This document shows positions 32,850-57,610 of a stretch of 64,000 bases of DNA, piece after piece. Location: NCBI GenBank assembly GCA_965221035.1, contig OZ244860.1, forward strand, positions 3,312,641 to 3,376,640. The letters run 5' to 3'. Source of the stretch: Candidatus Rariloculaceae bacterium. Its GTDB lineage: Bacteria > Pseudomonadota > Gammaproteobacteria > Steroidobacterales > Rariloculaceae. Position numbers and translations under genes: made by a program. Position 1 is the first letter of the stretch. Each line of letters starts with the position of its first letter. The notes under the pieces were generated by a model. That model ran no database searches. It was not told the origin of the DNA and worked only from the letters and a program-made list of their open reading frames with translations.

Positions 32850-34346
32850 TCAATAGTCCAGGAAAATCCCTTCCGCCGGATCCAGACCGCCGTGGAAGCC
32901 GCCCTGGTCGCGCACGACCCGGCCCTCTCCGTTGTCGTCGTAATGCACCCAGACCAGGCCGTGGGCGTCGCCGTAGCCGGGCATTTCGATGGTGGCCATC
33001 TGCTCGCGCGTGGCCGTGTCGAATACGTACAGGACCCCCTCGGCGTTGCTGGTGCCCCAGACTTCCCGACCGTTCGGAGCCAGCAACACGTGGTCGATCA
33101 TGTAGCCTGCGAACACGGTTTCCAGGCCCCGGCCGGTGGCCGTGTCGAGCACCGTCACGGTTCGCCCCATGAACCCCGTCGTTTCGCCCTTGTCGGCGAC
33201 CCAGATTTCCGACTCGTCGGCGTTGAGCGTGGCGCCGTAGGGGCCGATGCCCGCCGCCGCATGCCAGGCGATCTCGCCGGTCTCGATGTTGATCCTGGTC
33301 ACGCTGGAAGAGCCGCCGGCGGGCACATACATGTACTCGGAAGCCGAATCGATCACGATCCAGTCGCCCCGGTAGCCGGGGTAGGGGTACTCCTGTTCCA
33401 CTTCCCAGGTGTCGGGGTTGATCCGCGCCACCCAGAACGGCCGCATGGTGGTGAGGCGCCCGACGTTCATGCTCGACGCCCCGACAAAGGCGTCCATGCC
33501 GCGCGGCCCATAGCCGGCAGGCTGCATCAGGATGTAGATGGATTCGCCGTCGGTATACGAAGTGTAGGAACTGCCGCCCAGGTCCTCGTCGCGGACGCCG
33601 CCGACGATCTCGTCCGTCTCGGTGTCGTAGAGGAACACGTCCAGGCCGTCGTCGGCCCGCGCGAAGGTGTCGATCAGCAGGAGGTTGTCCCGGAAGATCT
33701 GGCCGTGGTGCAGTCGCCCGCCCATGGTGACGATTTTCACCGGCTGCAGCGTCAGGGCGTCCACCTTGACCATGGCCGTGGTGGAGAGCAGCGTGGGCTG
33801 GGTCTCCTCGGAGAGCGCGCCGATGATGTAGACATGCCGGGCGTCCGGCGAGACGACCGTCGTGTGCACGCTTGTGCGCAGTTCCGGCGCCAGTTCGCCA
33901 TAGGCGATGACTTCCTTGGTCTCGGCGTCCCCCACGACGACCCGGTTGGATTGGGCGGTGACCATGTTGCGGCCCACCGAGAACCGGTTCGTGATGACAC
34001 CCGTGTTTTCGTAGAAATAGGTCTTGCCGGGCTGCGGCTCGAACTTCGGTTCGCCGGGCTCGAATTCCGCGACGACCTCGTTCCGGAAGGTGCTCATGAT
34101 GTTGCCCGTACGCGATTTTCGCTCCCAGCTGTCGAGCACGGTCTGGAAGGGTTCGATGCCGCTGACGATCCGGTCGCGTTCCGATTGGGGAAATTGCTCC
34201 AGGGCTTCCGGATCGGGCGGGAATACGGGAATCTGGCCGGCCGCCATTCCGCCCGGACCGCCCGGCCCCATGCCCGAATCCTGGGCGGACGCCGCCTGCA
34301 GGCACAGGCAAAGACCGATACCGGACAACATTCGTAACAATTTCAT
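32850..34346 (-). CDS. Secreted beta-propeller protein, paralog 2 of 3 (no haem motif)
   Basis: Start ATG 34346 gives the Sec signal MKLLRMLSGIGLCLCLQAASAQD. No CxxCH anywhere. Aligns along most of its length with paralogs 1 and 3, for example VHTTVVSPDARHVYIIG, GGRLHHGQIF, and the C-terminus VVRDQGGFHGGLDPAEGIFLDY. Confidence 0.7.
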   Translation of the reverse strand: MKLLRMLSGIGLCLCLQAASAQDSGMGPGGPGGMAAGQIPVFPPDPEALEQFPQSERDRIVSGIEPFQTVLDSWERKSRTGNIMSTFRNEVVAEFEPGEPKFEPQPGKTYFYENTGVITNRFSVGRNMVTAQSNRVVVGDAETKEVIAYGELAPELRTSVHTTVVSPDARHVYIIGALSEETQPTLLSTTAMVKVDALTLQPVKIVTMGGRLHHGQIFRDNLLLIDTFARADDGLDVFLYDTETDEIVGGVRDEDLGGSSYTSYTDGESIYILMQPAGYGPRGMDAFVGASSMNVGRLTTMRPFWVARINPDTWEVEQEYPYPGYRGDWIVIDSASEYMYVPAGGSSSVTRINIETGEIAWHAAAGIGPYGATLNADESEIWVADKGETTGFMGRTVTVLDTATGRGLETVFAGYMIDHVLLAPNGREVWGTSNAEGVLYVFDTATREQMATIEMPGYGDAHGLVWVHYDDNGEGRVVRDQGGFHGGLDPAEGIFLDY

Positions 34347-43266: not shown

Positions 43267-43728
43267 ATGGGGCTACGAATGATTACGTTAACGGTCAACG
43301 GGCAGACCCATCGAATCGACGCCGAACCCGACACGCCGCTGCTTTGGGTCCTGCGCGATTTCCTGGGATACAACGGCACCAAGTTCGGCTGCGGGATCGC
43401 TTATTGCGGTGCCTGCACCGTTCATGTGGAGGGTAACCCGGTACGCTCGTGCATCGTTCCGGCGAGAGCCGCCGAGGGCAGTGACATCCGCACCATCGAG
43501 GGCCTGGACAATCATCCGCTTCAACAGGCCTGGATCGAGCACCAGGTGCCGCAGTGCGGTTATTGCCAGTCCGGCATGATCATGGCCGCGAAGGGGCTAC
43601 TGGACCGAAATCCGAATCCCACCGATGCGGACATCGATGCCGCCATCACCAATGTCTGCCGATGCGGAACCTATACCCGGATTCGCGCGGCAATTCACAC
43701 CGCCGCGGCGGCGATGAGGGAGGTCTGA
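43267..43728 (+). CDS. [2Fe-2S]-binding small subunit of a molybdopterin oxidoreductase (IorA/aldehyde-oxidase small-subunit type)
   Basis: Cys clusters [12 protein letters not shown] and [10 protein letters not shown] ... CRCGTY. Alternative start ATG 43279 (MITLTVNGQ). Confidence 0.9.
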
Positions 43729-43730
43729 CC

Positions 43731-45893
43731 ATGAAGACGCAGGTCTCCCGGCGCGGTTTCCTTCACGGTTCCGGGATGGCCGCCGCCAGCCTGGTCATCG
43801 GCTTTCACCTGCCTGTAAGGCCGGCGCGATCCCAGTTCGGCTCGCCGCCTGCGCCTTTTGTCGTTGATCGCGACATGGTCAATGCCTACCTGACATTCAA
43901 TCCTGACGACACGGTGTCCATCGTTTCAGCCGCGGCGGAGTTGGGACAGGGCTCGCTCACCTCTCTTCCCATGCTGATCGCGGAGGAGCTCGAACTGGAA
44001 ATCCGGCAGGTGCGCATCGAACAGGCGCCGCTCAATCCGGAAGCGTTCATGAACCGGCTCTTCGGTTACCAGACCACCATCGGCACGTCGGCGGTGCGAT
44101 GGGCGTTCGATCCCCTGCGGCAACTCGGGGCCAGCACCAGGGAACTGCTGCGCAACGCCGCGGCGGTTACCTGGGGCGTGCCGGTGGCCCAGACCGTGGC
44201 CCGAAGCGGCCAGGTCATCCACACTCCGACCGGACGGAGCCTGAGTTATTTCGAATTGGGCGAAACCGCCTCGGGATTGGAAATTCCGGTCGACGTACCC
44301 CTCAAGCCGCAAGGCGAATGGCGGATTCTGGGTACTCCATTCCCGCGCTGGGATACCGAGGCCAAGTCCACCGGGCAGGCGCGCTACGGTATCGACATGC
44401 GAGTGGAAGGGATGGTGGTCGCCACGATCGCCGCGACGCCGGTTCCCGGCGGCACCCTGCGTTCGGTCGATCCGCAACCGGCGCTGGTCGTACCCGGTGT
44501 GGAAGACGTGGTGATGCTCGAAGATGCCGTGGCGGTCACCGCGACCGATTACTGGTCGGCAAGGAAGGGCCTGGGCGCCCTGGCGCCGCAGTGGGATTCC
44601 GGGCCCGTGGCGGAGCGGGACAGCGAAAACATCCGCGAGGAAATGATGCGGTTGCTGGAACGTCCCGGCAACGAGGCGGTCAACGAGGGTGACATCGAAG
44701 CGGCCAGGGAAGCGGCGGCGCAGGTGCTGACGGCGACCTACGAGGCGCCCTATTGGGCCCACGCCACCCTGGAACCGCTGAATGCTACCGCCCACTATCG
44801 CGGCGACAGCATCGAGTTCTGGTTGGGAACCCAGTCACCGGGGCGCATCCGGAGCATGTGCGCGGAGACCTTTCCCGAAGTGCCGGCCGGAAACATCATC
44901 GTCAACAATCAGTACCTGGGCGGCGGCTTCGGTCGACGGGGCAGTCCCACACCGCCAAGACAGGCCGCGCTCATCTCGAAACAGATCGGCAAACCCGTGA
45001 AGCTGATCTGGTCGCGGGAGGAGGACATGACCCACTGCACGTATCGGCCGAAGTCCGCCGCCAGGATGGAAGGCTTTCTGGATGCGCAGGGCAAGGTCAC
45101 CGGATTCAAGGGCAGGATAGCGGTCCAGTCGACGCTGGCGGCGCTCACCGGCAATTCCGACATACCCTTCGATCCATTCGCGACGGAGGGCCTGATCGAC
45201 CACGATTACCGCTTTCCGGCGCTGAACTTCGAATACCACTCGCCGCGTCCGGGGATCCCGGTAGGTTTTTACCGGGGCGTCGGTTTCATCCACAACACGT
45301 TCTACCGCGAGAGCTTCATGGACGAACTGGCCCATGCCGCCGGACGGGACCCCATGGAGTTGCGCCTGGAGCTGGCCGGACACAGCGAGCGCAACGTGCT
45401 GCTCCTGAACACCCTTGCCGAGCGCTCCAATTGGGGCAGCCCCGCACCGGGAAATGTCCAGGGCGTGGCGTTCGCATACAGCGACGAATCCACGGTCGGG
45501 GAGGTCTTCGAAGCCGCCATCGGCGACGATGGCCGTGTCAGGCTGCGCAGGATCACCTGTGTCTGCGATGTCGGTGTTTGCATGAACCCGATGATGATCG
45601 AACACCAGATGGAGAGCGCCATCACCTGGGGACTCACCAGCGCCATGTTCGGGGAGATTCTCATCGACAACGGTGTGACGCGGCAGAAGAATTTCAACGA
45701 ATACGAGCTGGTCCGTATCAGCCACATGCCGGCGATCGAAACGGTGATCCTGCCGCCGACGGACACGCCGGGCAGCGGTGGTGAGTGCGGCGCGCCACCC
45801 GCGCCGCCGGCGTTGGCGAATGCGATCTTCGCCGCGACAGGCCGTCGCCTGCGTTCCATGCCGTTCAGGAATCACGGCATCTCGTTCGCCTGA
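43731..45893 (+). CDS. Molybdopterin-dependent oxidoreductase large subunit (IorB-like), Tat signal
   Basis: ATG 43731 lies 2 nt after the small-subunit stop. Tat motif MKTQVSRRGFLHGSGMAAASLVIG. 720 aa with aldehyde-oxidase/xanthine-dehydrogenase-type strings (GGGFGRRG, GVGFIHNTF). Confidence 0.85.
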   Translation: MKTQVSRRGFLHGSGMAAASLVIGFHLPVRPARSQFGSPPAPFVVDRDMVNAYLTFNPDDTVSIVSAAAELGQGSLTSLPMLIAEELELEIRQVRIEQAPLNPEAFMNRLFGYQTTIGTSAVRWAFDPLRQLGASTRELLRNAAAVTWGVPVAQTVARSGQVIHTPTGRSLSYFELGETASGLEIPVDVPLKPQGEWRILGTPFPRWDTEAKSTGQARYGIDMRVEGMVVATIAATPVPGGTLRSVDPQPALVVPGVEDVVMLEDAVAVTATDYWSARKGLGALAPQWDSGPVAERDSENIREEMMRLLERPGNEAVNEGDIEAAREAAAQVLTATYEAPYWAHATLEPLNATAHYRGDSIEFWLGTQSPGRIRSMCAETFPEVPAGNIIVNNQYLGGGFGRRGSPTPPRQAALISKQIGKPVKLIWSREEDMTHCTYRPKSAARMEGFLDAQGKVTGFKGRIAVQSTLAALTGNSDIPFDPFATEGLIDHDYRFPALNFEYHSPRPGIPVGFYRGVGFIHNTFYRESFMDELAHAAGRDPMELRLELAGHSERNVLLLNTLAERSNWGSPAPGNVQGVAFAYSDESTVGEVFEAAIGDDGRVRLRRITCVCDVGVCMNPMMIEHQMESAITWGLTSAMFGEILIDNGVTRQKNFNEYELVRISHMPAIETVILPPTDTPGSGGECGAPPAPPALANAIFAATGRRLRSMPFRNHGISFA

Positions 45894-45959
45894 CCGCCGG
45901 CGAATCCAGGCACGGCAGTAGCCGCGGCCATTCACCCGCAATCCCCAAAAGGAAGCCCC

Positions 45960-47429
45960 ATGAACCTTCTCAACCAGTATATCGGCGGCCAATGGAACGC
46001 GGCCGAAGCCCAGCGCACGTTCGAGGTCTTGAACCCGGCAACGGGAGAAACGTGGGCCCAGGCCCCGGATGCGTCCCGCAGCGACGCGAAGGCTGCGGTG
46101 GAAGCGGCGGCCCAGGCATCCGTGGCGTGGGCGGCCCTGCCTCATGCCGAGCGGGCCCGCCATCTCGCCAAGGCCGCGGATATTCTTGAGGTGCGCCAGC
46201 AGGAATTCGTCACGGCGCTTGTGGAGGAATCCGGTTCGTGGATCGGCAAGGCCATGTTCGAGTCCGGCTACGCAAGCGGCATCTATCGGGCCGCGGCGGC
46301 GTGCGCCTACCAGACCAATGGCGAAATTCTTCCGTCCGAGCACGGCAAGGTCAGCATGGCCGTGCGCCAACCCCTCGGGGTGGTGAGCGTGATTTCACCG
46401 TGGAATTTTCCGCTGCTGCTTTCATCGAGGGGGATTGCCGTCGCACTGGCGGTGGGCAACAGCGTGGTATTGAAACCGTCCGAGGAAACGCCCATGAGCG
46501 GCGGTACGCTGATCGCCGAGGTTCTGGCGGAAGCTGGCATTCCCGAGGGCGTATTCAATGTGGTGACGTGTTCGCGTGACAGCGTCGCGGAGGTGGGTGA
46601 CGAACTGGTCTCGAATCCGCATGTAGGCGCCATCAGCTTCACCGGTTCCACCGCCGTGGGCAGGCAGATCGCATCAAGGGCGGGCATGCTGCTGAAGAAG
46701 GCATGTATCGAGGCCGGCGGCAAGGACGCGCTACTTGTTCTGGACGACGCGGACATGGGTCAGGCTGTCAACGCCGCGACCTTCGGGACGTTCATGCACC
46801 AAGGCCAGATCTGCATGTCCGTGGAGCGAATCATCGTCGACGAAACCGTTGCGGACGAGTTTACGGAGCGCTTCGTGGCAAATACCAGGACGCTCAGGGC
46901 AGGGGACCCTCACGAGATCGGCAATGTCATCGGCCCGATCATCAATGATCGCCAGTTGCGGAAGATCGTCGAGCAGGTGGACGATGCCCGCGAAAAGGGC
47001 GCGGAGGTGCTTTGCGGCGGAACCAGCGAGGGACCGTACTACCACCCCACCGTGCTTTCCGGTGTCACACGGGAGATGAGAATCTACACCGAGGAAACAT
47101 TTGGTCCTGTGGCTCCGGTGATTCGGGCTTCCGGCGTCGACGAAGCCGTGGAGATCGCCAACGACTCCGAGTATGGGCTGTCCGCCGGCATCATCGGCCG
47201 GAACGAAGAGAGGGCGCTGGACGTCGCCAACCGGCTGCAGACCGGTATGGCGCACATCAACGACAGCTCGGTCAATGACGAGCCGCACGTGCCGTTCGGC
47301 GGAGTCAAGTGCAGCGGCCTGGGGCGCCATGGGGGGCGGGCGTCGGTCGAGACGTTCACGGAACAGCGCTGGATCACGCTGGAGCGGGGAGGTCGGCACT
47401 ATCCACCCCCCTTCGTGGAGAAGGGCTAG
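45960..47429 (+). CDS. NAD(P)-dependent aldehyde dehydrogenase
   Basis: 489 aa. VISPWNFP, GNSVVLKPSEETP, catalytic region FMHQGQICMSVERIIV, EETFGPV. Confidence 0.9.
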   Translation: MNLLNQYIGGQWNAAEAQRTFEVLNPATGETWAQAPDASRSDAKAAVEAAAQASVAWAALPHAERARHLAKAADILEVRQQEFVTALVEESGSWIGKAMFESGYASGIYRAAAACAYQTNGEILPSEHGKVSMAVRQPLGVVSVISPWNFPLLLSSRGIAVALAVGNSVVLKPSEETPMSGGTLIAEVLAEAGIPEGVFNVVTCSRDSVAEVGDELVSNPHVGAISFTGSTAVGRQIASRAGMLLKKACIEAGGKDALLVLDDADMGQAVNAATFGTFMHQGQICMSVERIIVDETVADEFTERFVANTRTLRAGDPHEIGNVIGPIINDRQLRKIVEQVDDAREKGAEVLCGGTSEGPYYHPTVLSGVTREMRIYTEETFGPVAPVIRASGVDEAVEIANDSEYGLSAGIIGRNEERALDVANRLQTGMAHINDSSVNDEPHVPFGGVKCSGLGRHGGRASVETFTEQRWITLERGGRHYPPPFVEKG

Positions 47430-47522
47430 AACACAAGCGATGGACCGGGTCCGTTCGAAAGGCGCGAACCGGTCGAGCTCCGGGATTCGAACCAGCATTC
47501 GAACCAGGATTCCGGGCCGGAG

Positions 47523-48149
47523 TCAGGGTTCGAACGCCACGCCCTCATCGGCCAGCGCCCTGGACACGCCGGGGTCGTCCAGCATGGTACTCACGAACCG
47601 TTCAAGGTGCGGGAAATCCCCCAGCCGGTTGGGAAACGCGCGCGCCGCCCAGCTTGAGAAAGTGAACAGATAGGCATCGATTACCGTTCTCCTGCCGGCG
47701 ATGACGTGGTCGCGTCCGTCCATGTGCCGGTCGGCGATCCCGTACAGGCGTTGAAGGTTGGCAAACGCGGCAGCGCGAATCGCCGGATGGGCGGATTCAT
47801 CGGGATGAAACCGCTGCGGCGCGAAGTACGGACGAAACCCCGGGTGCAGGTCGCCGCCCAGGAAACCGTGCCAATGGTTGAGCTCGTAGTGGCCCTCGGG
47901 TGTGGGATCGGGACCCAGGTTGGGCTGAGGATATTTCTCGATCAGGTACTTCTGGATGGCCGAGTTCTGAGTCAACGTGCGGTCGCCATCCACGAGCGCG
48001 GGGACGGCGCCGGCGGGATTCAGCCTGAGGTACTCGGGCGACCTGGTCCGCTCGCGCGTCACCGCCACGGCTTCGTATGGTTCGCCGATCCACTCGAGAA
48101 TGATATGAATGGCGAGGGAGCAGGCGCCTGGAAGGTAGTACAGTTTCAT
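47523..48149 (-). CDS. Glutathione S-transferase (beta/GstA-like)
   Basis: Start ATG 48149 gives MKLYYLPGACSLAIHIILEWIGEPYEAVAV, a classical bacterial GST N-terminus. The ATG overlaps the upstream ALDH stop (ATGA at 48149-48146). Confidence 0.85.
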   Translation of the reverse strand: MKLYYLPGACSLAIHIILEWIGEPYEAVAVTRERTRSPEYLRLNPAGAVPALVDGDRTLTQNSAIQKYLIEKYPQPNLGPDPTPEGHYELNHWHGFLGGDLHPGFRPYFAPQRFHPDESAHPAIRAAAFANLQRLYGIADRHMDGRDHVIAGRRTVIDAYLFTFSSWAARAFPNRLGDFPHLERFVSTMLDDPGVSRALADEGVAFEP

Positions 48150-49633
48150 TCGACTACCGCCGGAGCGCCGAAAGCGCGCTCTCCGGGCAGTTGCAGGGTG
48201 ATCAACTTCCACTCGGTCAGCGCCTCGATGTCCATTTCCGTGCCTTCCCGGCCGATGCCGCTGTCCTTGACCCCGCCGAAGGGCACGTGGGGTTCGTCGT
48301 AGAAGGTCGCGGCGTTGATGTGCACGGTGCCGGACTCAATGCCCCGAGCGTACAGCATGGCCTTGTCGATGTCCCTGGTCCAGATGGCGGCCGACAGCCC
48401 ATAGTTGGTGTCGTTGGCCAGCGCGAGTCCGTCCTCGAGTCCGTCCACAGGGTAGATCGCATCGACCGGCCCGAAAGTTTCTTCGCGGAACACGGTCATG
48501 CCTTCCTTGACGCCGGTCAGGATCGTCGGTTGACAGCGGTTGCCTGCCCATTCGCCGCCGGCGACCACCGTGGCGCCCTTGGCGCGGGCATCCTCGATAT
48601 GCGAACGCACGCGGTTTCTCTGCCGTTCCGAGATGATGGGTCCCACCCAGGTCGTGGGGTCGCGCAAGTCGCCCATCTGGTGCTCCGCGGCGTGTTCCGC
48701 CCTGGCCCTGAGCTTGTCCACGAATTCCTCGAAGATGGGCCGCTCCACCAGCACCCGACTGGTCACCATGCAGCCCTGCCCCTGGAAAAAGAAGCACGCC
48801 ATGGCGGCGGCATCCACCGCGGCGTCCACGTCCGCGTCGGCCAGCACCAGGGAGGGGCTCTTGCCGCCGAGCTCGAGCACGCAGCGCTTCATGTGCCGGC
48901 CACACAGGGCGGAAATGTGCTTGCCGATGGCGCTTGATCCGGTGAACAGGATGGCCTTCACCAATGGATGCGTGGTCAGGCTGTCGCCGATGTCGGCGCC
49001 GAAGCCGGTGATGACGTTGAACGTGCCGGGCGGGAAGCCAGCCTCCTCATAGACGCGCCCCATCATCAGCACGGACCTGGGCGTGAATTCGGATGCCAGG
49101 CTCACCACCGTATTGCCCGTGGCCAGGGCGCCGGCACTGAGTTTGGCGGCCTTCAGAAAGGGCACATTGAACGGCGTGATGCTTCCCACGACGCCCAGCG
49201 GTTCGCGCACGCTCATCACCATGCGGCCGGGATTGTCCGAAGGGTGCGTCTCGCCGGAGATTCGGCGGGTGATGCCGGCGGCCGAACGGAGGTAGTCGGC
49301 AGCGGCCATGGTTTCAAATCGCGCCTTGATGATGGGTGAACCGTTCTCGGTGACGATGGTGTCGGCGATGCCGTCGCGGTCGCGCTCTACGATGTCAGCG
49401 GCGCGGGCAAGCCACTGTTCGCGCTGGCGCGGGGTGGTCTGGCGGTAGGCCCGAAAGGCTTCGTGGGCCGTTCGCACGGCGCGATCCATGTCATCGGCGG
49501 TGGCTTCCGCTGCCCGGCAGAAAACCGTGTCGTCGGCGGGGTCCAGATCGTCGAAGTACCTGCCGCTGGACGAGGGCGTGTGCTCCCCGCCGATCCACAG
49601 TTCCAATTGGTCGATGTCGTTGTGTGTCGTCAT
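48146..49633 (-). CDS. NAD(P)-dependent aldehyde dehydrogenase
   Basis: 495 aa. ITPFNVPF, VLELGGKSPSLV, catalytic FFFQGQGCMVTSRVLV, EETFGPV. Confidence 0.9.
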   Translation of the reverse strand: MTTHNDIDQLELWIGGEHTPSSSGRYFDDLDPADDTVFCRAAEATADDMDRAVRTAHEAFRAYRQTTPRQREQWLARAADIVERDRDGIADTIVTENGSPIIKARFETMAAADYLRSAAGITRRISGETHPSDNPGRMVMSVREPLGVVGSITPFNVPFLKAAKLSAGALATGNTVVSLASEFTPRSVLMMGRVYEEAGFPPGTFNVITGFGADIGDSLTTHPLVKAILFTGSSAIGKHISALCGRHMKRCVLELGGKSPSLVLADADVDAAVDAAAMACFFFQGQGCMVTSRVLVERPIFEEFVDKLRARAEHAAEHQMGDLRDPTTWVGPIISERQRNRVRSHIEDARAKGATVVAGGEWAGNRCQPTILTGVKEGMTVFREETFGPVDAIYPVDGLEDGLALANDTNYGLSAAIWTRDIDKAMLYARGIESGTVHINAATFYDEPHVPFGGVKDSGIGREGTEMDIEALTEWKLITLQLPGERAFGAPAVVE

Positions 49634-49900
49634 GATTCAAGGCGCAACGCAACGCGATGCGGAGGCGAGAATAGCACCGGCGCCTCATTCGATCCCGCTC
49701 CGGGCGGACATCAGACATTTTTTTTCGTGATGGCCGCGAATTGTCGCGAGGCATGTCCCGGCCGCGTCTCCTTGCCGACCGGGTAGCCATTGGCGTAATG
49801 AATGAACCCCCATTATCAATATCCATTTCTGGTAACAGGACAGAACTCACTACAATGTCTCGCATGCATCATTGTGATTCCCAGTGGACCAGGAGACCTC

Positions 49901-50932
49901 GTGGCTGATCTCGTGTTCGGTTTCGGTACGTCCCATGGGCCGTTGCTGACCATCGATCCGGAGATCTGGGAGCGCAGCAGGACTGCCGACATGATGGAGA
50001 TTCCGCGAATCCATTTTCGCGGCAATACCTATTCCTGGGAGGAACTGCTGGCACTGCGTGGCGCCGCGAATTTCGCAGAGCAGAATACGCTGGCGGCCCG
50101 TCAGGCCGCGTTCGCGGACTGTCAGCGGGCGCTGGATGCGCTCGCCGATCGCATCCGCGAAGCGCATCTGGATGCCATGATCATCATCGGAGACGATCAC
50201 TACGAATACTTTCGCCGGGACATTCAGCCGCCGTTCGCGGTGTATTGCGGTGACAGTCTCGTCAACTGCGGATTCGATCCCGACGCGAAGACCGACTTGC
50301 CGGAGGCGGTCTGCGAGATTCTCGCGGCGAGTTGTCCGCCGCAGGATGAGGCTTACCCGATCGCTTCGGAGCTGGCCCTGGAAATCATCACCCAGGGCAT
50401 CCGCGACGGATTCGATGTGACGTCTTCGGAAGTCCAGCCCGTTGATCCGGAAGGGCTGCGGGGAATCGGCCACGCCGTCGGGTTCATCGTCCGGCGCCTG
50501 CTGGACGACCGACCGATGGCGCTGGTGCCCGTGCTGATGAACACCTACTTCGAGCCCAACCAGCCGCCGGTCAAGCGATGTTTCGACTTCGGGCGCTCCA
50601 TGGGAAGGGCGGTGAAGACCTGGAAAAGGGATGCTCGCGTGGCGGTCGCCGGTTCCGGCGGCCTGACGCACTTCGCGATCGACGAGGAGCTGGACAGGCG
50701 GTTGTTGCGGGCATTGCAGCAACGCGACCTGGACACACTGCTGTCGGTGCCGGAGAACGTGCTGCAGTCAGGCACCTCGGAATACAAGAACTGGATTGCC
50801 GCCCTCGGCGTACTGTGGGAGACGGGCCTCGAAATGGACCTGATCGACTATGTGCCCTGCTACCGGTCGCAAGCCGGAACGGGAGCCGGAATGGGTTTTG
50901 CCGCCTGGACTCCGGTCGGAACGGGCGGATGA
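49901..50932 (+). CDS. Class III extradiol ring-cleavage dioxygenase family protein (LigB-like)
   Basis: GTG 49901 lies 5 nt after AGGAG and gives VADLVFGFGTSHGPLL. GDDHYE and AGSGGLTHF strings fit the LigB fold. The ORF-track ATG 49802 adds 33 aa with no support. Confidence 0.6.
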   Translation: MADLVFGFGTSHGPLLTIDPEIWERSRTADMMEIPRIHFRGNTYSWEELLALRGAANFAEQNTLAARQAAFADCQRALDALADRIREAHLDAMIIIGDDHYEYFRRDIQPPFAVYCGDSLVNCGFDPDAKTDLPEAVCEILAASCPPQDEAYPIASELALEIITQGIRDGFDVTSSEVQPVDPEGLRGIGHAVGFIVRRLLDDRPMALVPVLMNTYFEPNQPPVKRCFDFGRSMGRAVKTWKRDARVAVAGSGGLTHFAIDEELDRRLLRALQQRDLDTLLSVPENVLQSGTSEYKNWIAALGVLWETGLEMDLIDYVPCYRSQAGTGAGMGFAAWTPVGTGG

Positions 50933-51405
50933 GCGGACGGGTTGCCAACGTGCCGAGGGCGTTGCGCCCGGTGGATGACGAAGAGCGACGCCGCATCGAG
51001 CGGGAATGCCGAGAAATCATGGTCCGGATGGGTCAGCACCTGGATTCGGGGCGTTTTGAGGAGTTTGTCGACTTCTTTACCGACGATGCCAGATGGCGCC
51101 GTCGCGGCAAGGAACTGAAGGGCAGGGACGCGATCCTCGCGCAAGTCCGCAAGCGTTCTCCGACGCTGATTCTCCGCCACGTGTTTACCAATTTCGTGGT
51201 GGATGTTCACGACGGGAACCACGCCCACTGCCAAGCGTACATGCTCGGCTTCCGGTACGACAACGGCAAGGTTGTGAGCTCTCCGCCGCCGTTTCGGGAT
51301 GCCAACCGGGCACTTTGGATATACCACGACGATCTGGTCCGCACCGAAGCCGGCTGGAAGGTTGCCCGGCGCAGCGCCGAGCGGATATTCGAAGACCCGG
51401 AATAA
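50929..51405 (+). CDS. SnoaL/NTF2-like fold protein
   Basis: ATG 50929 overlaps the LigB-like stop (ATGA). 158 aa. FEEFVDFFTDDARWRRRGKELKGRDAIL and RHVFTNFVVDV are typical of SnoaL-4/ring-hydroxylating beta-subunit-like domains. Confidence 0.6.
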   Translation: MSGRVANVPRALRPVDDEERRRIERECREIMVRMGQHLDSGRFEEFVDFFTDDARWRRRGKELKGRDAILAQVRKRSPTLILRHVFTNFVVDVHDGNHAHCQAYMLGFRYDNGKVVSSPPPFRDANRALWIYHDDLVRTEAGWKVARRSAERIFEDPE

Positions 51406-51450
51406 GCCAGGCGCCCGCATCTTGGCGAGGTTTCGCCTGGAGCGGTTGCT

Positions 51451-52149
51451 CTATGCAGCTCTGGTGGTGTTTGGCGGATCCCCGGGTGGGGGCGGTTCGG
51501 GCAAAGGCGTCAGGTCCCTGCGCATGAACACTGCTTCGAGCAGGCCTTCTATCCGAGCCAATCGCTCTCGCAATTCGCCCAATTCCTTTCGCTGCCCGGC
51601 CATTTCGCTGCTTTGCGAATCGAATCCGCGCCTCATTTCCTCGCGCTGCGACTCCAGTGCGTCCAGCGTATGCTTGCTGTGCGACTCCAAAGCGCCTTGC
51701 ATATCCTTGCGGTGCGACTCCAATGCGTCCTGCGTACGCTTGCGGTGAGACTCCAACGCGTCGTGCGTATGCATACGGTGCGACTCCAATGCGCCTTGCA
51801 TATCCTTGCGGTGCGACTCCAATGCGCCTTGCATATCCTCGCGGTGCGACTCCAATGCACCTTGCATATCCTCGCGGTGCAACTCAAATGCATGCAGCAA
51901 CTGCTCTCGGTGCGACTCCATTGCACCCTGCGTATGCGTGCGATGCGACTCCAACCCGACCTGCATCTCCTTGCGCTGCGACTCCAACCCGTCCTGCATC
52001 TCCTTGCGGTGCGTCGCCAACGCATCCTGCAGATCCTTGCGCTGCAAGTTCATTTCCTTGCGCAGTTCGCGGATGTCCTGTCGCAGCCACGCGAACTGGC
52101 CAAGCACGAGCGCACCCAGCGCGATGAAACCTGCAAGCGTCATATTCAC
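51451..52149 (-). CDS. Membrane-anchored His-rich protein built from ~14 tandem 11-residue repeats (consensus MQGALESHRKD)
   Basis: N-terminal TM helix MNMTLAGFIALGALVLGQFAWL. Then repeated units: LQDALATHRKE MQDGLESQRKE MQVGLESHRTH ... MQGALESHRED MQGALESHRKD MQGALESHRMH ... The tail is RERLARIEGLLEAVF plus a Pro-rich end. This is the only frame with a start, a TM anchor and non-degenerate composition. Confidence 0.7.
   Translation of the reverse strand: MNMTLAGFIALGALVLGQFAWLRQDIRELRKEMNLQRKDLQDALATHRKEMQDGLESQRKEMQVGLESHRTHTQGAMESHREQLLHAFELHREDMQGALESHREDMQGALESHRKDMQGALESHRMHTHDALESHRKRTQDALESHRKDMQGALESHSKHTLDALESQREEMRRGFDSQSSEMAGQRKELGELRERLARIEGLLEAVFMRRDLTPLPEPPPPGDPPNTTRAA
51615..52076. 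repeat. 33-bp tandem repeat array, ~14 units (well conserved 51648-52010)
   Basis: The unit start GCGACTCCA recurs at 51648, 51681, 51714, 51747, 51780, 51813, 51846, 51879, 51912, 51945 and 51978, exactly 33 nt apart. Degenerate units lie at 51615, 52011 and 52044. The units at 51681 and 51780 are identical, and 51813 differs from them by 1 nt. All six frames are open across the array. Confidence 0.95.
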
Positions 52150-52269
52150 GGGCGCATCGTAGCACGCCCGTTCGCGCCCAGCGGCATGTAGAAACTGCCC
52201 GATTTATCCAGATTTCCGTCTTGCAGTTTTGCCGAGAATGAGCATGCCCCACGCCAGCGCGGCCCCGGA

Positions 52270-53163
52270 TCAACTCAGCAGAAACTCGATGTGCGCCCGG
52301 TTGAAGGCCTCGGGCTCTTCCCACTGTGGCCAGTGGGCGCTGTTTTCCAGCACGACGACCTGTGCGCAGGGAATGGATCCCGCAGCCTTGCGGGCGAGTT
52401 CCAGAGGTTGCCCGGGGTTGTGATTCGTCCAAAGCAACAGGGTCGGGCAGGTCAGTTCCCGCAGTTGATCCGGGCGGTACCAGGTCTTCTGGCTTACGGG
52501 GTCGATCAGCCCGCCGATGGCCCGTTCGGTGAGCTTGCGGATGGCAGCTGCGCGTCCCGGCTGCGAATAGATCAGAAACCGGGTCTCCAGGAGTTCTTCC
52601 GTCAGGCTTGCCTCATCCAGAAACAGCCACTTCATGCGCATGGCGAGCGCTTCCCGGGTGGGCGTGCCGGTGGCCTTGCGCGAACGCGCCAGGAAGTCCT
52701 TCATCTGGTTGACACCCTGCGGAGTATCCGGCGACAGGGGCAGCCCGGTGTTGAGTACGAGCTTGCCAACGCGATGCGGGTGCTTGAGCGCGAACCACGC
52801 GGCAACCGAGCCGCCGAGGGATTCACCGGACAGGTGCGCGGTGTCGATGCCCATGGCGTTCATCAGGTCGAGCAGGTGGTCGACGTAATCCTGCTCGGCA
52901 TAGTCGATGTCGGGCGCATCGGTATAGCCGTGCCCGACCATGTCGAATGCGATCGTCCGGAAATGTTCCGTGTGGGCGGCGATGTTGCGGCTGTACGCTT
53001 CGGCGTGGCCGCCGGTCCCGTGCAGCAGCAACAACGGGAAACCTGAACCCGCTTCAATGACGCGGGTGCGGATGCCGCCGGCGTCGACAAACGTCTGCCT
53101 CAGGTCAACGCCTTGAAGGTTGTTCCAGATGGAAGATTGCATTTTGCTGGATGTCTCTCTCAA
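52270..53163 (-). CDS. Alpha/beta-hydrolase, meta-cleavage-product (C-C bond) hydrolase-like (BphD/MhpC type)
   Basis: FPLLLLHGTGGHAEAY, nucleophile elbow LSGESLGGSVA, and the C-terminal ENSAHWPQWEEPEAFN. Confidence 0.75.
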   Translation of the reverse strand: MRETSSKMQSSIWNNLQGVDLRQTFVDAGGIRTRVIEAGSGFPLLLLHGTGGHAEAYSRNIAAHTEHFRTIAFDMVGHGYTDAPDIDYAEQDYVDHLLDLMNAMGIDTAHLSGESLGGSVAAWFALKHPHRVGKLVLNTGLPLSPDTPQGVNQMKDFLARSRKATGTPTREALAMRMKWLFLDEASLTEELLETRFLIYSQPGRAAAIRKLTERAIGGLIDPVSQKTWYRPDQLRELTCPTLLLWTNHNPGQPLELARKAAGSIPCAQVVVLENSAHWPQWEEPEAFNRAHIEFLLS

Positions 53164-53238
53164 TTCGCCTCGATTGTTGTCGCTCGAAAAGTCTGGCTCG
53201 CCGTTCCCGGGCCCGATGGCTGGCTGTCCCGATGCGGC

Positions 53239-54486
53239 TCAATCCGCCGCCGGGCGGTTGGCGCGCACGTCTTCCAGCGACCAGGCGAGTACGGCTCCCG
53301 CCAGCATCAGTACCACCGGCACCAGCATGGTGGCCTGCAGCCCGGCAGTCACGGCAATCGCGCCTACCGCGTAGGTGGTGAATCCGGCGCCGAGAATTTC
53401 GCCGACGGCGTTGGCGGCGCCGGTGGCCGTGACCGCGTCCCGTGGGTTGACGGCCTCGGCCGGAATCACGCCCACCGCCAGCGGGGAGACCGCGCCGCCG
53501 CAGAACATGAATCCGAAGACGCTGATGAGCAGTATCACGTAGGGTACGTCCGCCGGCAGGCGGGCGAAGATGAGCCCGAACACCATCGCTGCCAGGAATG
53601 CGTACATGACGACCTTGCGCCGGTGACCGGTGCGGTCGGCGATCCAGGTGAAGGCGAATCCGCCCAGACCGTCCGCCAGCAGTGCGGCGCTGACGGTGAG
53701 GGGGATCACAGGGCCTTCCAGCATGAAGTATCCGCCGTTGGCCACATCGCTGCCCAGCAGGAACAGGCCGAACACCATGAACGTGAACACGCGGCCCATG
53801 CTGCAGATCGACATCAGCGCGCTGATCCAGACGTTTCTCGTCCGCAGGATTGTCATCAGCGGCGCTCGTTCACCTCCGTCCCGGCGGTTATCCGAGGTTG
53901 CCCGCTCCAGGGCCGGTTCGCCGAAAAAGAAAAGCAGCAGGAGCACCACGACGAGCATGGGTCCGGCGGCAATGAAAAAACCCGTACGCCAACCGTAGCT
54001 GTTGGCGATTCCGTCGAGCAGCGGTGGCGCCAGAACCATGCCGAGTATGATGAAGGCGATGAACATCAACGAAACCACGCGCGCCCGGGCGGGTGGCGGT
54101 GCGGTGCGGCGCGCGGCGTTCATGATCGGCGACAGCACGCCGCCTTCGGCAAGTCCGAGCGCGGTGCGGATGGCGATGAAGATCGCGATGGTCGCGGCCA
54201 ACCCCGAAACCCATCCAAGAACCGCGGTGATCGCACCGAAGATCAGCAGCATGGGCTTGGTGCCGTGCCGGTCCGCCAGCCTTCCCGCCAGCAGCGATCC
54301 CACGCCCCAGGCGACGGCAAACGCCAGCGCGATGGAGCCGACGCCGCCCAGGTTGAGTCCGAATTCGGCGGCGATGTGCGGCCCGAGGAAGGACGATGCA
54401 TTGCGCTGCAGGCCCACCAGCCCCCACATCAGCATCAGCAGGGCGACGCCGAAAACCCAATTGCCGCGAGACGAAGCCTCTTGCAT
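53239..54486 (-). CDS. MFS transporter
   Basis: Start ATG 54486 (MQEASSRGNWVFGVALLMLMW...). A 415-aa 12-TM-type sequence with the loop GRLADRHGTKPM. Confidence 0.8.
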   Translation of the reverse strand: MQEASSRGNWVFGVALLMLMWGLVGLQRNASSFLGPHIAAEFGLNLGGVGSIALAFAVAWGVGSLLAGRLADRHGTKPMLLIFGAITAVLGWVSGLAATIAIFIAIRTALGLAEGGVLSPIMNAARRTAPPPARARVVSLMFIAFIILGMVLAPPLLDGIANSYGWRTGFFIAAGPMLVVVLLLLFFFGEPALERATSDNRRDGGERAPLMTILRTRNVWISALMSICSMGRVFTFMVFGLFLLGSDVANGGYFMLEGPVIPLTVSAALLADGLGGFAFTWIADRTGHRRKVVMYAFLAAMVFGLIFARLPADVPYVILLISVFGFMFCGGAVSPLAVGVIPAEAVNPRDAVTATGAANAVGEILGAGFTTYAVGAIAVTAGLQATMLVPVVLMLAGAVLAWSLEDVRANRPAAD

Positions 54487-54562
54487 GTCAATCCCCTTGT
54501 CCGATGGCCGAGCGGACCGCGGGTCGTCCCGCCCGATTCTCATGGCGTCGGCCGACCGCCGT

Positions 54563-56461
54563 TCAATAATCCAGGGTCATACCCGAGTACGGATCGATGC
54601 GGCCATGAAAGCCGCCCTGGTCGCGGACCACACGCCCGTTGCCGTCGTCGTCGTAGTGGACCCATACCAACCCGTGCGGGTTGCCGTAGCCGGGCATCTC
54701 GATGATGTCCAGCTTCTCCCTGGTGGCCACGTCGAAGACGTGAATGGTGCCCTCGCCGTTGCTGGTGGCCCACATTTCCCGGCCGTTGGGCGACAATAGC
54801 AGATGGTCGACGGTGTATGCCCCGAACAGCGTTTCCTTGACCTGTGGGTTTCCGGTGTCGATGACGGTGACCGTGCGACCGCGGAACCCGGTCACCTCGC
54901 CCTTGTCGGCCACCCAGATTTCCGTCTCGTCCGCGTTCAGGCTGGCGCCGTAGGGGCCGGTGCCCGTACCCGAGACCCACGCGATTTCGCCGGTCGCGAG
55001 GTTGATCTTGCTGAGATTGGAGGTTCCGCCGGAGGGTATGTACATGTACTCGCCGGCCGAGTCGATGACGACCCAGTTGGCCCGGTAGCCCGGATGGGGG
55101 TACTCGCGAACGACCTCCCAGTTGTCGGGATCGATCCTGGCGACCCAGTAGGGGCGCAGGACGGTGACGTTGCCCTGCACGAACCGCTCTCCGCCGATGA
55201 TGCCGGAAAACGCGGGCGGACCGTAGCCGGCCGGGCTCATCAGCAGGTAGATGTACTCGTCGTCCGTGAACGCCGTATAGCAGGCGCCGCCCAGGTCCTC
55301 GCACTGGATGCCGCCGAGAATTTCGTCGGTTTCCGGATCAAGCAGAAAGACATCCAGGCCATCCGGGTCCCGCGCGAAGGTATCCATCAGAAGGTATCGG
55401 TCCCGGAAGACCTGCCCGTGGTGGAGCCGGCCACCGACGATCAGCTGCCTGACCGGTTCGAGCGTCAGGGCGTCCACCTTGAGCAGGGACGCTGGGCTGA
55501 CGATTTCCATGTTGCCCTGTGGCGCGCCGGCCGCCGCGGGGCCGGTGATGTAGACGTAGCGTGCGTCCGGTGACAGCACCGTGGTGTGAACCTGGCCGCT
55601 CAACGCCTCGGGCATCTCGTTGGCAACGATGATCTCGCGTGTGGCGGCGTCGCCGATGACCACCTGGCTGGCGCGGGCAAGTTCGGCGGACCCGGGGTCC
55701 AGGCCTTGATAGTAGAAGAAGTTCGGTCGGTCCAGATTTTCATAGAAGTAAGTGTGTCCCGGTTCGGGCGTGAATTTCGGTTCGCCAGCGTCGTATTCTT
55801 CCACGACGGTGACGTCGTATTCCTTCTCCAGCGAGCCTTCACCGGCCTTGCGCGTCCAGTCGGCGATCACGGTCTCGAATGGTGCGATCTGTTCAACGAG
55901 CCGGTCGCGGCGTGAGAACGCCACCTCGCCCTGTCCGACCACGCGCAGGCTGGCCAGTTCGTCGAGCAGCACGCCCCGGTCGATGGCTTGCGGATCGTGC
56001 CCCCGAAGCTGAGTGATGTAGTAGGTCAGGGCGAACGCGTCGATGACGGTCGGGTCGAGAAGGTCCACCACCACGGCCATCTGCGGGTTGCTCTGCATCT
56101 GGTATGCGATGAGGAACGGGCTTGGAGGATTTTCGAAGGCCGGCCCGATGAGGCCGTCGCCGCCAGCTCCATGGCAGGTCGTGCAGAGCGCGGGCGTGTT
56201 GTAGATTTCACCGCCCAGCGCAATGAGTTCTTCATCGCTGTAAGCGTCCAGTGCGCGTTGACTTTTCTCCTCGGGTGGCGCCAGGCCACCCAGGCCGGCT
56301 CCCGGACCCCCGGGCGGTCCGAACACAGCCTCGATGCCGGGTGGCTCCTCCTGTGCCGCTGCGATGTTCGAGAGCCCGATGCCGCCGCCGGGCAGCCGGT
56401 GAACCGACACCCACGCCAGCAGTGCCAGCACGACGGCGAAAACTGGAACGGGCTTCTTCAT
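54563..56461 (-). CDS. Secreted cytochrome c - beta-propeller fusion protein, paralog 3 of 3
   Basis: ATG 56461 is preceded by GGAGGGA and gives MKKPVPVFAVVLALLAWVSV. Haem motif CTTCHG. The propeller and C-terminus (VVRDQGGFHGRIDPYSGMTLDY) align with paralogs 1 and 2. Confidence 0.7.
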   Translation of the reverse strand: MKKPVPVFAVVLALLAWVSVHRLPGGGIGLSNIAAAQEEPPGIEAVFGPPGGPGAGLGGLAPPEEKSQRALDAYSDEELIALGGEIYNTPALCTTCHGAGGDGLIGPAFENPPSPFLIAYQMQSNPQMAVVVDLLDPTVIDAFALTYYITQLRGHDPQAIDRGVLLDELASLRVVGQGEVAFSRRDRLVEQIAPFETVIADWTRKAGEGSLEKEYDVTVVEEYDAGEPKFTPEPGHTYFYENLDRPNFFYYQGLDPGSAELARASQVVIGDAATREIIVANEMPEALSGQVHTTVLSPDARYVYITGPAAAGAPQGNMEIVSPASLLKVDALTLEPVRQLIVGGRLHHGQVFRDRYLLMDTFARDPDGLDVFLLDPETDEILGGIQCEDLGGACYTAFTDDEYIYLLMSPAGYGPPAFSGIIGGERFVQGNVTVLRPYWVARIDPDNWEVVREYPHPGYRANWVVIDSAGEYMYIPSGGTSNLSKINLATGEIAWVSGTGTGPYGASLNADETEIWVADKGEVTGFRGRTVTVIDTGNPQVKETLFGAYTVDHLLLSPNGREMWATSNGEGTIHVFDVATREKLDIIEMPGYGNPHGLVWVHYDDDGNGRVVRDQGGFHGRIDPYSGMTLDY

Positions 56462-56680
56462 CTTTCGGGCTCCCTCCAATGAATTCGGCAAGGCATGTTA
56501 CCCCTGTTCGCAGGCTTGGCGTTCAGAAGTCCCGGCCCTGACGTCGGGATCGTCTGCTTGCGGGGCAAGGAGTGCGTCCATGAAGGTTCAGGGCCATGTA
56601 TCCATGCTACTTGGCCGTCGTGCAGTAACTGAAATGAATATCTGATATAAATTGCCATTCATTTTGAGAATAGCGTATCC

Positions 56681-57610
56681 ATGTCAAACCTTCGACGCAT
56701 CGACCTGAACCTCTTCACTGTCTTCGAGGCGATCTACCAGGAGCGCAACCTGACCTATGCCGCCAACAGGATCGGGATGAGCCAACCCGCAGCGAGCAAC
56801 GCGCTGAAACGGCTTCGGGCCCTGTTCGACGACGAGTTGTTCGTGCGCCAGGGTAACACCATGCAGCCGACGCCTCGGGCACGCGAGCTGGCGTCATCGT
56901 TCAACCCGGCGCTGGAACTGATTCGGGACGGACTGGCCGCCAGGACTGTCTTTGACCCGACACAGCCGCGAGCATTCAACATCGCGGGAATCGAACACCT
57001 GGAGCACTTTGTCCTGGCGTCGCTGCTGAGCGCGATCGGTCCGAATCCGGGCCGGATCCGCCTGAACGCGGTGGGTGGGTTCGCGGACCAGTTCAAGGGC
57101 GAGTTGAAATCCGGGGAAATCGACCTGGCCATCGATCATGTTTCCTTGGCCGATGAGGAGTTCGAGGTCAGGCAGCTGGGCCAGGATACGCTGATTTCCC
57201 TGGTTCGGCGGGACCACCCCTGCGCGGGCAAGACGTTGAATCTGTACGAAACCCTGGCGCTGGACCATGTCTGTCTCAAGGCCCGGGATCACCGCGGCTT
57301 CGTCGCTGAGCGGTTCCTTCGCGCCAACGGGCGCGCGGATGCGATCATGGTTCGCGTCACGCATTTCTATGCGATGCTGAGCGTAATCGAGAACTCCAAC
57401 CTGGTGGGGACGATGCCGCGGCTCATCGGCGAGCGGTTTCTCGCACACTATCCGGTCGCTCAAGTGAGGACGGTCATTCCCGAAGGGGCGTTCCGGGTCT
57501 TGCTGATCTGGCACCGCAGCCAGAGCCGTGACCCGGGAAACGTCTGGTTGCGGGAGCATCTTGTCCGGGCCTACGCGTCGGCGACGCGACACCAATCATT
57601 CACGTCATGA
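56681..57610 (+). CDS. LysR-family transcriptional regulator
   Basis: N-terminal wHTH IDLNLFTVFEAIYQERNLTYAANRIGMSQPAASNALKRLRALFDDELFVR plus a LysR substrate-binding domain. Divergent from paralog 3. Confidence 0.9.
   Translation: MSNLRRIDLNLFTVFEAIYQERNLTYAANRIGMSQPAASNALKRLRALFDDELFVRQGNTMQPTPRARELASSFNPALELIRDGLAARTVFDPTQPRAFNIAGIEHLEHFVLASLLSAIGPNPGRIRLNAVGGFADQFKGELKSGEIDLAIDHVSLADEEFEVRQLGQDTLISLVRRDHPCAGKTLNLYETLALDHVCLKARDHRGFVAERFLRANGRADAIMVRVTHFYAMLSVIENSNLVGTMPRLIGERFLAHYPVAQVRTVIPEGAFRVLLIWHRSQSRDPGNVWLREHLVRAYASATRHQSFTS

Follow-up and report, generated by a model that had tools for sequence, protein, structure and literature searches.

A 33-bp repeat array in Candidatus Rariloculaceae encodes the stalk of a predicted membrane-anchored protein family with conserved ends

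What does an array of 33-bp repeats encode when it lies inside a single open reading frame (ORF), and is that frame a gene at all? The question is raised by a 699-nt intact ORF on the minus strand, at 51451-52149, of a 64,000-nt stretch of Candidatus Rariloculaceae bacterium (assembly GCA_965221035.1, contig OZ244860.1, positions 3,312,641 to 3,376,640), hereafter the window. The ORF encodes 232 amino acids (aa) when read from the GTG at 52149, or 230 aa from the ATG at 52143. An earlier sequence-only reading described the product as a protein encoded by about 14 copies of the repeat; both the ORF and the array were confirmed, with about 14-16 in-frame units and no insertions or deletions (indels). 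Judged by conservation across genomes, the ORF is a real, functional gene for a small bitopic inner-membrane protein. It is part of a membrane-anchored family, large and so far unnamed, with near-invariant ends and a stalk that changes length freely. Our preferred interpretation, to which we give somewhat better than even credence, is a membrane-tethered, probably cytoplasmic and probably homo-oligomeric hendecad stalk of evolvable length with a conserved C-terminal module. All features of the gene described below lie on the minus strand.

The length of the ORF alone is not evidence for the coding frame, because the repeat holds several frames open on both strands. Three other frames are open across the array (51613-52191 (+), 192 aa; 51657-52127 (+), 156 aa; 51633-52025 (-), 130 aa); they probably arise from the periodicity of the sequence, and automatic annotation could call them in error. 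The coding frame was identified because its termini are conserved in other genomes. Over the 54 conserved codons of the termini, the ratio of non-synonymous to synonymous substitution rates (dN/dS) was 0.05-0.14 at dS 0.6-1.4, indicating purifying selection on the protein in the minus-strand frame. Homologues and the dN/dS of the termini thus both back the frame, which closes with a TAG stop codon at 51451-51453.

Searching proteins returned 19 relatives, 127-170 aa long. When genomes were scanned, one per species, about 35 loci came to light, every one in a metagenome-assembled genome (MAG); the carriers are Alphaproteobacteria, Gammaproteobacteria (among them Ca. Rariloculaceae and Ca. Azophilus), Defluviicoccus and Rhodospirillaceae. 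Many carriers look like host-associated, sponge-type MAGs, an impression gained from record names only. Several genomes hold 2-4 paralogues; in the window, a hidden Markov model (HMM) built from the family alignment (A1) scored the ORF at 223 bits and found no second copy in the 64 kb. Relatives share a near-invariant N-terminus (LAGFxALGALIxGLFAWLRQDIRxLR), whose GxFAWLRxD core appears in the window as LGQFAWLRQD, and a near-invariant C-terminus (ELRERVARIEGLLEAVFMRRDLTP) followed by a Pro-rich tail and a final AA. Between these ends the unit sequence is fully different from one relative to the next (e.g. GKIDALREDMT, DSKFGSLRNDF and LRTELRGEIES).

Does this family already have a name? The sequence-only reading did not recognise one, and neither did we. 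We searched Pfam, NCBIfam, PHROGs and PADLOC with three kinds of query: the window protein itself, short members poor in repeats, and distant relatives. Neither Pfam nor NCBIfam had a model that exceeded its cut-off, and the four libraries together gave only sub-threshold coiled-coil noise. Exact-sequence look-ups of the window protein, read from either start, and of its MFS-transporter neighbour returned no record. A PDB sequence search returned only weak apolipoprotein and prefoldin matches (E>=0.01), and literature searches found nothing relevant and no described family of this kind. A profile built from the short members matched at least 3,626 proteins at E<=1e-5, none informatively named, mostly from uncultured Alpha- and Gammaproteobacteria and Acidobacteriota. 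This superfamily includes subfamilies ending in LEGLLEGLREAIAGRxAA and in MEGSLEGFLAGRRDRDAA, and one member of the latter is named as coming from an Acidobacteria MAG. In the genome scan, loci from Vicinamibacterales MAGs (L037-L045, at about 4001-4080) matched only the N-terminal transmembrane (TM)/WLRxDIR motif. They probably belong to the MEGSLEGFLAGRRDRDAA subfamily, with a DUF1592/DUF1588-type protein on one side and an SNF2 helicase on the other; in that case the family would span phyla.

What varies within the family is the length of the middle. All-against-all comparison showed that the loci fall into syntenic orthologous groups. The window's own orthologue, L015, lies on a 5.9-Mb Gammaproteobacteria MAG chromosome that is syntenic with window 47525-56071 at about 82% nucleotide identity on both sides of the gene. 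The alignment breaks only at 51575-52051, where L015 has 80 bp. At 100 aa, the L015 orthologue contains no His and about three units, of GSLRGEQ type, compared to about 14 units in the window, whose copy is the longest family member found. Two other orthologous groups include proteins of 129/99/114/95 aa and 102/92/144/85 aa, with flanks that are 80-95% identical. Because length shifts between syntenic orthologues and adjacent units in the window are near-identical (see below), we regard the stalk as an expandable spacer.

The lengths themselves follow a rule. From the TM Trp to the C-terminal cap we counted 28, 32, 39, 43, 46, 50, 54, 61, 75, 76, 80, 90, 97, 102, 152 and 178 residues. Offsets from the commonest length, 32, are nearly all sums of 7 and 11 (7/7 for those within 0-29 residues). 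Likewise, the dominant repeat lag among the top 112 superfamily members was 11 (87 members), 7 (8), 18 (9) or 22 (8). Steps of 7 and 11 residues point to a coiled-coil register, suggesting that helical packing, rather than a class-A lipid-binding helix, is the selected property of the stalk.

Which side of the membrane does the stalk occupy? The N-terminal segment TLAGFIALGALVLGQFAWL is the sole hydrophobic stretch of the protein, with a Kyte-Doolittle 19-residue mean of 1.8, compared to at most 0.31 past the first 30 window start positions of that scan. This confirms the single N-terminal TM helix claimed earlier; the helix itself, LAGFIALGALVLGQFAWL, lies at 52084-52137 and has small-xxx-small spacing. 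The TM region is near-invariant in the family at G5, L9, L12, G15, F17, W19, L20, R21 and D23. The window helix has no Lys or Arg (K/R) ahead of it and 3-4 behind it. Furthermore, the top 112 superfamily hits average 0.02 K+R before the TM segment and 4.2 in the 15 residues after it. The positive-inside rule assigns topology from such charge asymmetry, so the TM segment is predicted to be N-out/C-in, with the helix and C-terminus in the cytoplasm.

The same outline, an N-terminal TM helix, a long helix and a Pro-rich end, resembles TolA, TonB, the Rz i-spanin and Lpp. A periplasmic stalk of that kind, N-in/C-out and touching the wall or outer membrane with its Pro-rich C-terminus, would also agree with weak PHROG matches to Rz-like spanins (E 0.02-0.05). 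Periplasmic tail-specific proteases, moreover, recognise non-polar C-termini as well, a further point in its favour. We nevertheless consider this arrangement quite unlikely. It conflicts with the charge asymmetry, the acidic MD N-terminus and the lack of a signal-peptide n-region, and no o-spanin, Tol or Ton partner genes lie nearby. The TM-to-cap span of 28-178 residues corresponds to roughly 4-27 nm (at 0.15 nm per helical residue) and varies even between orthologues, which is hard to square with a periplasmic bridge because the width of that compartment is fixed.

We next consider the form of the stalk. AlphaFold2 (family alignment, monomer) gave one continuous helix over residues 3-208 (mean pLDDT 86.8), followed by a disordered tail. 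After the TM helix, this amounts to a single uninterrupted helix of about 185 residues with an 11-residue a-d-e-h pattern. The hydrophobic-moment analysis that the sequence-only reading had suggested gave a single sharp peak at 98 degrees, or 3.67 residues per turn, in agreement with the 11-residue helical periodicity it described. A Foldseek search of the model against the PDB, also suggested there, returned zero matches, as expected for a lone helix.

That reading had offered two types of 11-residue helix: a lipid-surface helix of the apolipoprotein, LEA-3, perilipin or synuclein type, or a coiled coil. The 11-residue helix stands; the fit to a lipid surface is poor. In apolipoproteins A1, A4 and E, class-A amphipathic 22-mers (2x11) present a broad apolar face and are punctuated by Pro. 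If the 11-mers here formed such a helix, lying flat on the inner leaflet to stabilise or sense the membrane under stress, strict 11-residue periodicity would be expected, and it is seen. The Apolipoprotein family PF01442 was indeed the most recurrent library match (35.4 bits and E 1.2e-8 for the window protein; 19-51 bits for relatives), the PDB sequence search gave weak hits to ApoA-I and ApoA-IV (E about 0.01), and the sll1863 stress-protein family was also matched, weakly (E 0.026). However, the PF01442 scores are far under the gathering cut-off of 90 bits, and no LEA family (LEA_4) was among the Pfam matches at E<=10. The apolar face takes up merely 2-3 of the 11 residues of each hendecad, with a hydrophobic moment (muH) of 0.27 at 98 degrees, and the array (residues 23-198) has no Pro punctuation. 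The mixing of 7- and 11-residue units in relatives follows a coiled-coil register, not the class-A rule, and it is the TM segment and C-terminal cap, rather than the repeats, that are most strongly conserved. A lipid-surface helix is, in our estimate, rather unlikely.

At the far end of the stalk, the helix closes with the conserved cap ELRERLARIEGLLEAVFMRRDLTP (51505-51576), which is present in all family loci and whose columns E190-P213 are invariant or nearly so in alignment A1. The motif of the cap in the family is ELRERxARIEGLLEAVFMRRDLTP, and is reduced to (R/K)xEGxLE, then Ala-Ala-COOH, across the superfamily. It is followed by the Pro-rich disordered tail LPEPPPPGDPPNTTR (51454-51504; pLDDT <50 at the end of the model), which ends ...TTRAA. 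The final AA is invariant in the family and present in 106/112 top superfamily hits, with VA in another 4/112. In the ssrA tag, recognition by ClpXP depends principally on Ala-Ala-COO-, and ClpXP substrates also include natural proteins with Ala-Ala ends (PMC7652416). Because the AA is conserved family-wide, this analogy makes the terminus a possible candidate degron or C-terminal recognition signal of the ClpXP type.

How did the window allele come to be so long? Tandem Repeats Finder reported a period of 33 with 13.1 copies at 51614-52045 (78% matches, 0% indels, score 372), and a repeat search found a start-to-start spacing of exactly 33 all along the array, in line with the exact phase described earlier. 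In the protein register, the stalk (51556-52083) comprises 16 eleven-residue rows (residues 23-198), 11/16 of which fit the consensus ESHRKDMQGAL; hendecad position a is Leu, d is His or Gln, e is Arg and h is Met or Thr, and AlphaFold2 models the whole as a single helix. A pairwise distance matrix picks out a His-type core of 9 consecutive ES(H)R... units, all with His at d, at 51655-51951. Three neighbouring units within it (51787-51885) are 1-3 nt apart, and a fourth unit three positions off is 1-4 nt from them.

Such near-identical neighbours bear out the recent expansion proposed by the sequence-only reading, with one correction of detail. The units at 51681 and 51780, described there as identical, are 1 nt apart (A/T, a synonymous Ala change); the unit at 51813 does differ by 1 nt from that at 51780, and likewise by 1 nt from that at 51846. 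Inverted repeats were searched for in the array and are absent. A metagenome scan with the His-unit 16-mer GGTGCGACTCCAATGC returned at least 120 stretches; among the loci listed, each had one chance match and none an array, the pattern being too short for that collection.

Differences within the array fall evenly on the three codon positions (16/18/22); of the codon differences, 37 are non-synonymous and 13 synonymous. This pattern, in the longest and most atypical family member and one with a GTG first start where relatives have ATG, might indicate a decaying or neutral allele, in which a runaway array and the ATG-to-GTG change have left a poorly expressed, near-pseudogene copy. We hold this to be very unlikely. 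The frame is intact over its 699 nt with no indels in the array, the termini are as conserved as in other members (dN/dS 0.09 for the window against L015), and a second ATG is kept, as in the related locus L009. In addition, the units retain their framework positions E1, S2, H3, R4, A10 and L11.

Do the His residues point to a function? The sequence-only reading held that every unit presents a His and proposed a metal-buffering or pH-sensing His/Glu surface. Only 10/16 rows have His at the ESH position; 4/16 have Gln there. The window protein contains 15 His in total (6.5%; codons CAC x10, CAT x5). In alignment A1, the window HRKDM aligns to the family consensus LRxEM, so the His stands in place of a core Leu at hendecad position d. 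The ends of the array carry Gln (CAG) or Leu at this position and its core carries CAC or CAT, which is consistent with a mutational path CTG>CAG>CAC and subsequent amplification of the mutant unit. Neither the syntenic orthologue nor any of the approximately 35 relatives has His at this position, so the proposed surface is not a family trait. The His ladder is at most an allele-specific gain and cannot explain the family, and a metal or pH role is possible for the window allele only. As an allele-specific by-product of amplification rather than the family's purpose, the ladder would weaken the core or render it sensitive to pH or metal.

It could also be argued that the ladder was selected, with ten stacked His layers, helped by HxxH pairs in 3-4 units, binding or buffering Zn, Ni or Cu, or making stalk assembly pH-dependent. 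Ten of the 15 His do fall at a single point of the hendecad, at 294 degrees on the apolar stripe with Ala and Met to either side, units such as ESHRMHTH, ESHRTHT and ESHSKHT bring extra His pairs at i/i+3, and the amplified unit is precisely the one that bears His. SmbP, a His-rich helical repeat protein that binds metal, offers a loose precedent (PMC10893511). We judge a selected function unlikely. Stalk His are absent from L015 and every other family member, the family Leu is two single-base steps from His, and the Gln intermediate persists at the array ends. The adjoining genes are for aromatic catabolism, with none for metal homeostasis, and His on the same helix are 11 residues (about 16 angstroms) apart, so chelation would require a hypothetical oligomer. 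Whatever its origin, a Leu-to-His core substitution has arisen naturally in the window allele and recurs ten times, which makes the allele useful for the study of polar-core coiled coils.

Where does translation begin, and from what transcript? A second in-frame ATG lies at 52143, two codons inside the GTG start. Family relatives begin MDMTL; the first ATG has been lost in the window (GTG) and in L009 (ATT), yet the second is kept in both, which makes 52143 the more likely start rather than 52149. A promoter-like extended -10 element, TGcTACGAT, lies at 52156-52164 and ends 6 nt upstream of the GTG, or 12 nt upstream of the ATG. A TAnnnT hexamer is found 5-7 nt before the start in 24/30 family loci, compared to 1.1% at random positions, and most alphaproteobacterial loci have TGGAC(A/G) exactly 17 bp upstream of it, a sigma-70-like arrangement. 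A Shine-Dalgarno motif is missing at most loci. From these motifs we infer a leaderless or near-leaderless mRNA. Further upstream, at 52191-52216, the window contains GAAATCTGGATAAATCGGGCAGTTTC, with a direct repeat AATC(T/G)GG 10 bp apart. It aligns with the upstream DNA of L004, L008, L009, L010 and L015, which are gammaproteobacterial-type loci. A regulator could bind at this element, or the element could be what is left of an ancestral -35 region. Homology between loci starts at the promoter-like element and stops at the stop codon.

Put together, these observations suggest how the protein might be made and work. A leaderless mRNA from a sigma-70-type promoter abutting the start codon would give a protein whose short acidic N-terminus faces outward and whose helix lies in the cytoplasm. 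Identical chains would zip into a parallel, nearly untwisted coiled-coil stalk, a length-tolerant spacer that keeps the conserved C-terminal module off the membrane, with Ala-Ala-COOH as a putative ClpXP-type recognition or turnover signal. The stalk would grow and shrink by in-frame unequal recombination or slippage between 33-bp units (21-bp in some relatives).

Several points temper our confidence in this account. The AlphaFold2 model is monomeric only, and the coiled coil is deduced from periodicity. With His or Gln at d and Arg at e, the apolar positions reduce to Leu (a) and Met or Thr (h), and the window stalk may pair weakly or act as a single helix. The first start in the window is GTG, a poor start for leaderless translation; the window -35 region is unconvincing, and a generic promoter scan found nothing at the window gene. 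The C-terminal AA could partly stem from GC-rich codon drift (GCC GCC TGA).

A bolder version, which we regard as doubtful, is that the family is an undescribed protein class. Here constitutive leaderless mRNAs would encode membrane-tethered proteins with a cytoplasmic coiled-coil stalk of fast-evolving length, and their near-invariant AA end would make them ClpXP (or FtsH) substrates or tethers. Stalk length would tune protein lifetime or the reach of the cap, and the roughly 10 His/Gln layers of the window allele would serve as a pH or metal switch.

We also examined the genomic context. The gene had been described as sitting alone between two catabolic operons. The neighbours do belong to aromatic catabolism, but the gene is not isolated on its own strand: it lies 120 bp downstream of same-strand major facilitator superfamily (MFS) transporter and alpha/beta-hydrolase genes. 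It is convergent with a LigB-dioxygenase/SnoaL pair, 45 bp stop to stop; an intrinsic terminator was considered for this gap and dismissed, the fold being not significant (z = -1.45). The apparent aromatic-catabolism area (43554-57610) includes a MoCo-binding hydroxylase subunit, two aldehyde dehydrogenases, a glutathione S-transferase (GST), the LigB-type extradiol dioxygenase, a SnoaL_4 protein, the alpha/beta (meta-cleavage-type) hydrolase, the MFS transporter and a LysR regulator. Over the block at 47525-56071, synteny extends to the Gammaproteobacteria MAG OY761822.1, with an identity of about 82%. Elsewhere, window 22070-22987 and 32887-33767 both match L015 592-1509 (70-72% identity, opposite strands) and look like paralogous copies of a gene beside the syntenic block.

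Across the family, aromatic catabolism is only one setting among many. Other contexts include a PLP enzyme/acyl-CoA dehydrogenase, the interior of an ABC peptide-transporter operon, toxin-antitoxin islands, sulfatases, a murein endopeptidase and an SNF2 helicase. No neighbour recurs over 12 independent contexts; the gene is stand-alone, and guilt by association therefore yielded no function. In one region rich in toxin-antitoxin genes (MazE/PIN, RhuM), two superfamily members lie 500 bp apart with an 82-aa ORF between them (L166 5001-5348 and 5845-6123), which looks like local tandem paralogy. In L003, a peptide ABC operon has the family gene between its SBP_bac_5 and permease genes. There the family gene is bracketed by a 162-nt direct repeat with 87% identity (7928-8089 and 8511-8672; also in L017), a duplication that covers the 5' end of the downstream ABC permease gene and the DNA upstream of that end. 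In P0009, P0014 and P0016, gene callers join the stale permease start (MSWSFLLRRLL...) to the family ORF. The unrelated contexts and the L003 duplication raised the possibility of a mobile element. This was rejected as a general explanation because the contexts form stable syntenic groups, homology is bounded by the promoter and stop codon, and there are no terminal inverted repeats.

Beyond this locus, the analysis turns a single odd ORF into a defined, testable family that has no curated model. The family combines a predicted N-out/C-in anchor, a heptad/hendecad stalk, predicted start-abutting promoters and an Ala-Ala end. With 28-178 residues from TM segment to cap, its members form a natural series of coiled-coil 'rulers'. 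It should also be noted that family genes are readily mis-called, as seen in the L003 gene call, which is fused to the duplicated permease start, and in the ambiguous start codons.

How does the protein compare with known systems? Apolipoprotein A-I/A-IV/E repeats and LEA-3 11-mers share its 11/22-residue helical periodicity, from which it differs in its TM anchor, narrow apolar face and lack of Pro punctuation, and in the heptads mixed in by its relatives. PARCELs are variable-number intragenic repeats that encode amphipathic segments in membrane-targeted proteins and are patchy across clades; they are defined by a 25-residue motif encoded by dyad-symmetric DNA (PMC2996958). The window array is likewise an intragenic variable-number repeat in a membrane protein. 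Identity with PARCELs was rejected, as the window array repeats every 33 bp (11 aa) and shows neither inverted repeats nor dyad symmetry. The small SmbP protein of Nitrosomonas europaea has a high content of His and acidic residues and binds Cu, Zn, Ni and Mn (PMC10893511). The window protein is also small and His-rich. SmbP, however, is periplasmic and soluble, unlike the TM-anchored window protein, whose stalk His are confined to one allele and occupy a coiled-coil core position; PDB sequence and library searches gave no SmbP match. With ssrA-like degrons, family proteins share Ala-Ala-COOH, but the residues preceding it are polar or charged (R/K/E/S) rather than Leu, and the cytoplasmic location of the C-terminus is a prediction from topology.

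PADLOC families including the anti-phage ZorA gave only coiled-coil tail matches (13-21 bits; NCBIfam ZorA2, 16.5 bits against a cut-off of 700), and no Zor genes lie nearby. The closest likenesses, ZapG/YhcB and subunit b of F-type ATP synthase, are of architecture only. ZapG/YhcB (DUF1043), also small, combines an N-terminal TM helix with a coiled-coil domain (PMC8163987). ZapG/YhcB is without tandem repeats and limited to gammaproteobacteria, whereas the family described here has its own cap and AA terminus. The window protein had no Pfam DUF1043 match at E<=10, and DUF948 was matched in relatives only, at 18-26 bits against a cut-off of 37.2. Subunit b of F-type ATP synthase has an N-terminal TM segment and a long cytoplasmic a-d-e-h hendecad helix that forms a right-handed coiled-coil stalk, and chimeras of it are functional if the substituted residues of the dimerisation region retain the hendecad pattern and right-handed coiling (PMC6131620). 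No homology to subunit b/b' was detectable (NF006293, subunit B', 10.3 bits against a cut-off of 118), the window gene lies outside any atp operon, and its product has no delta-binding domain. The product shares with subunit b an N-terminal TM segment followed by an a-d-e-h hendecad helix, to which it adds a Pro-rich tail and an Ala-Ala end.

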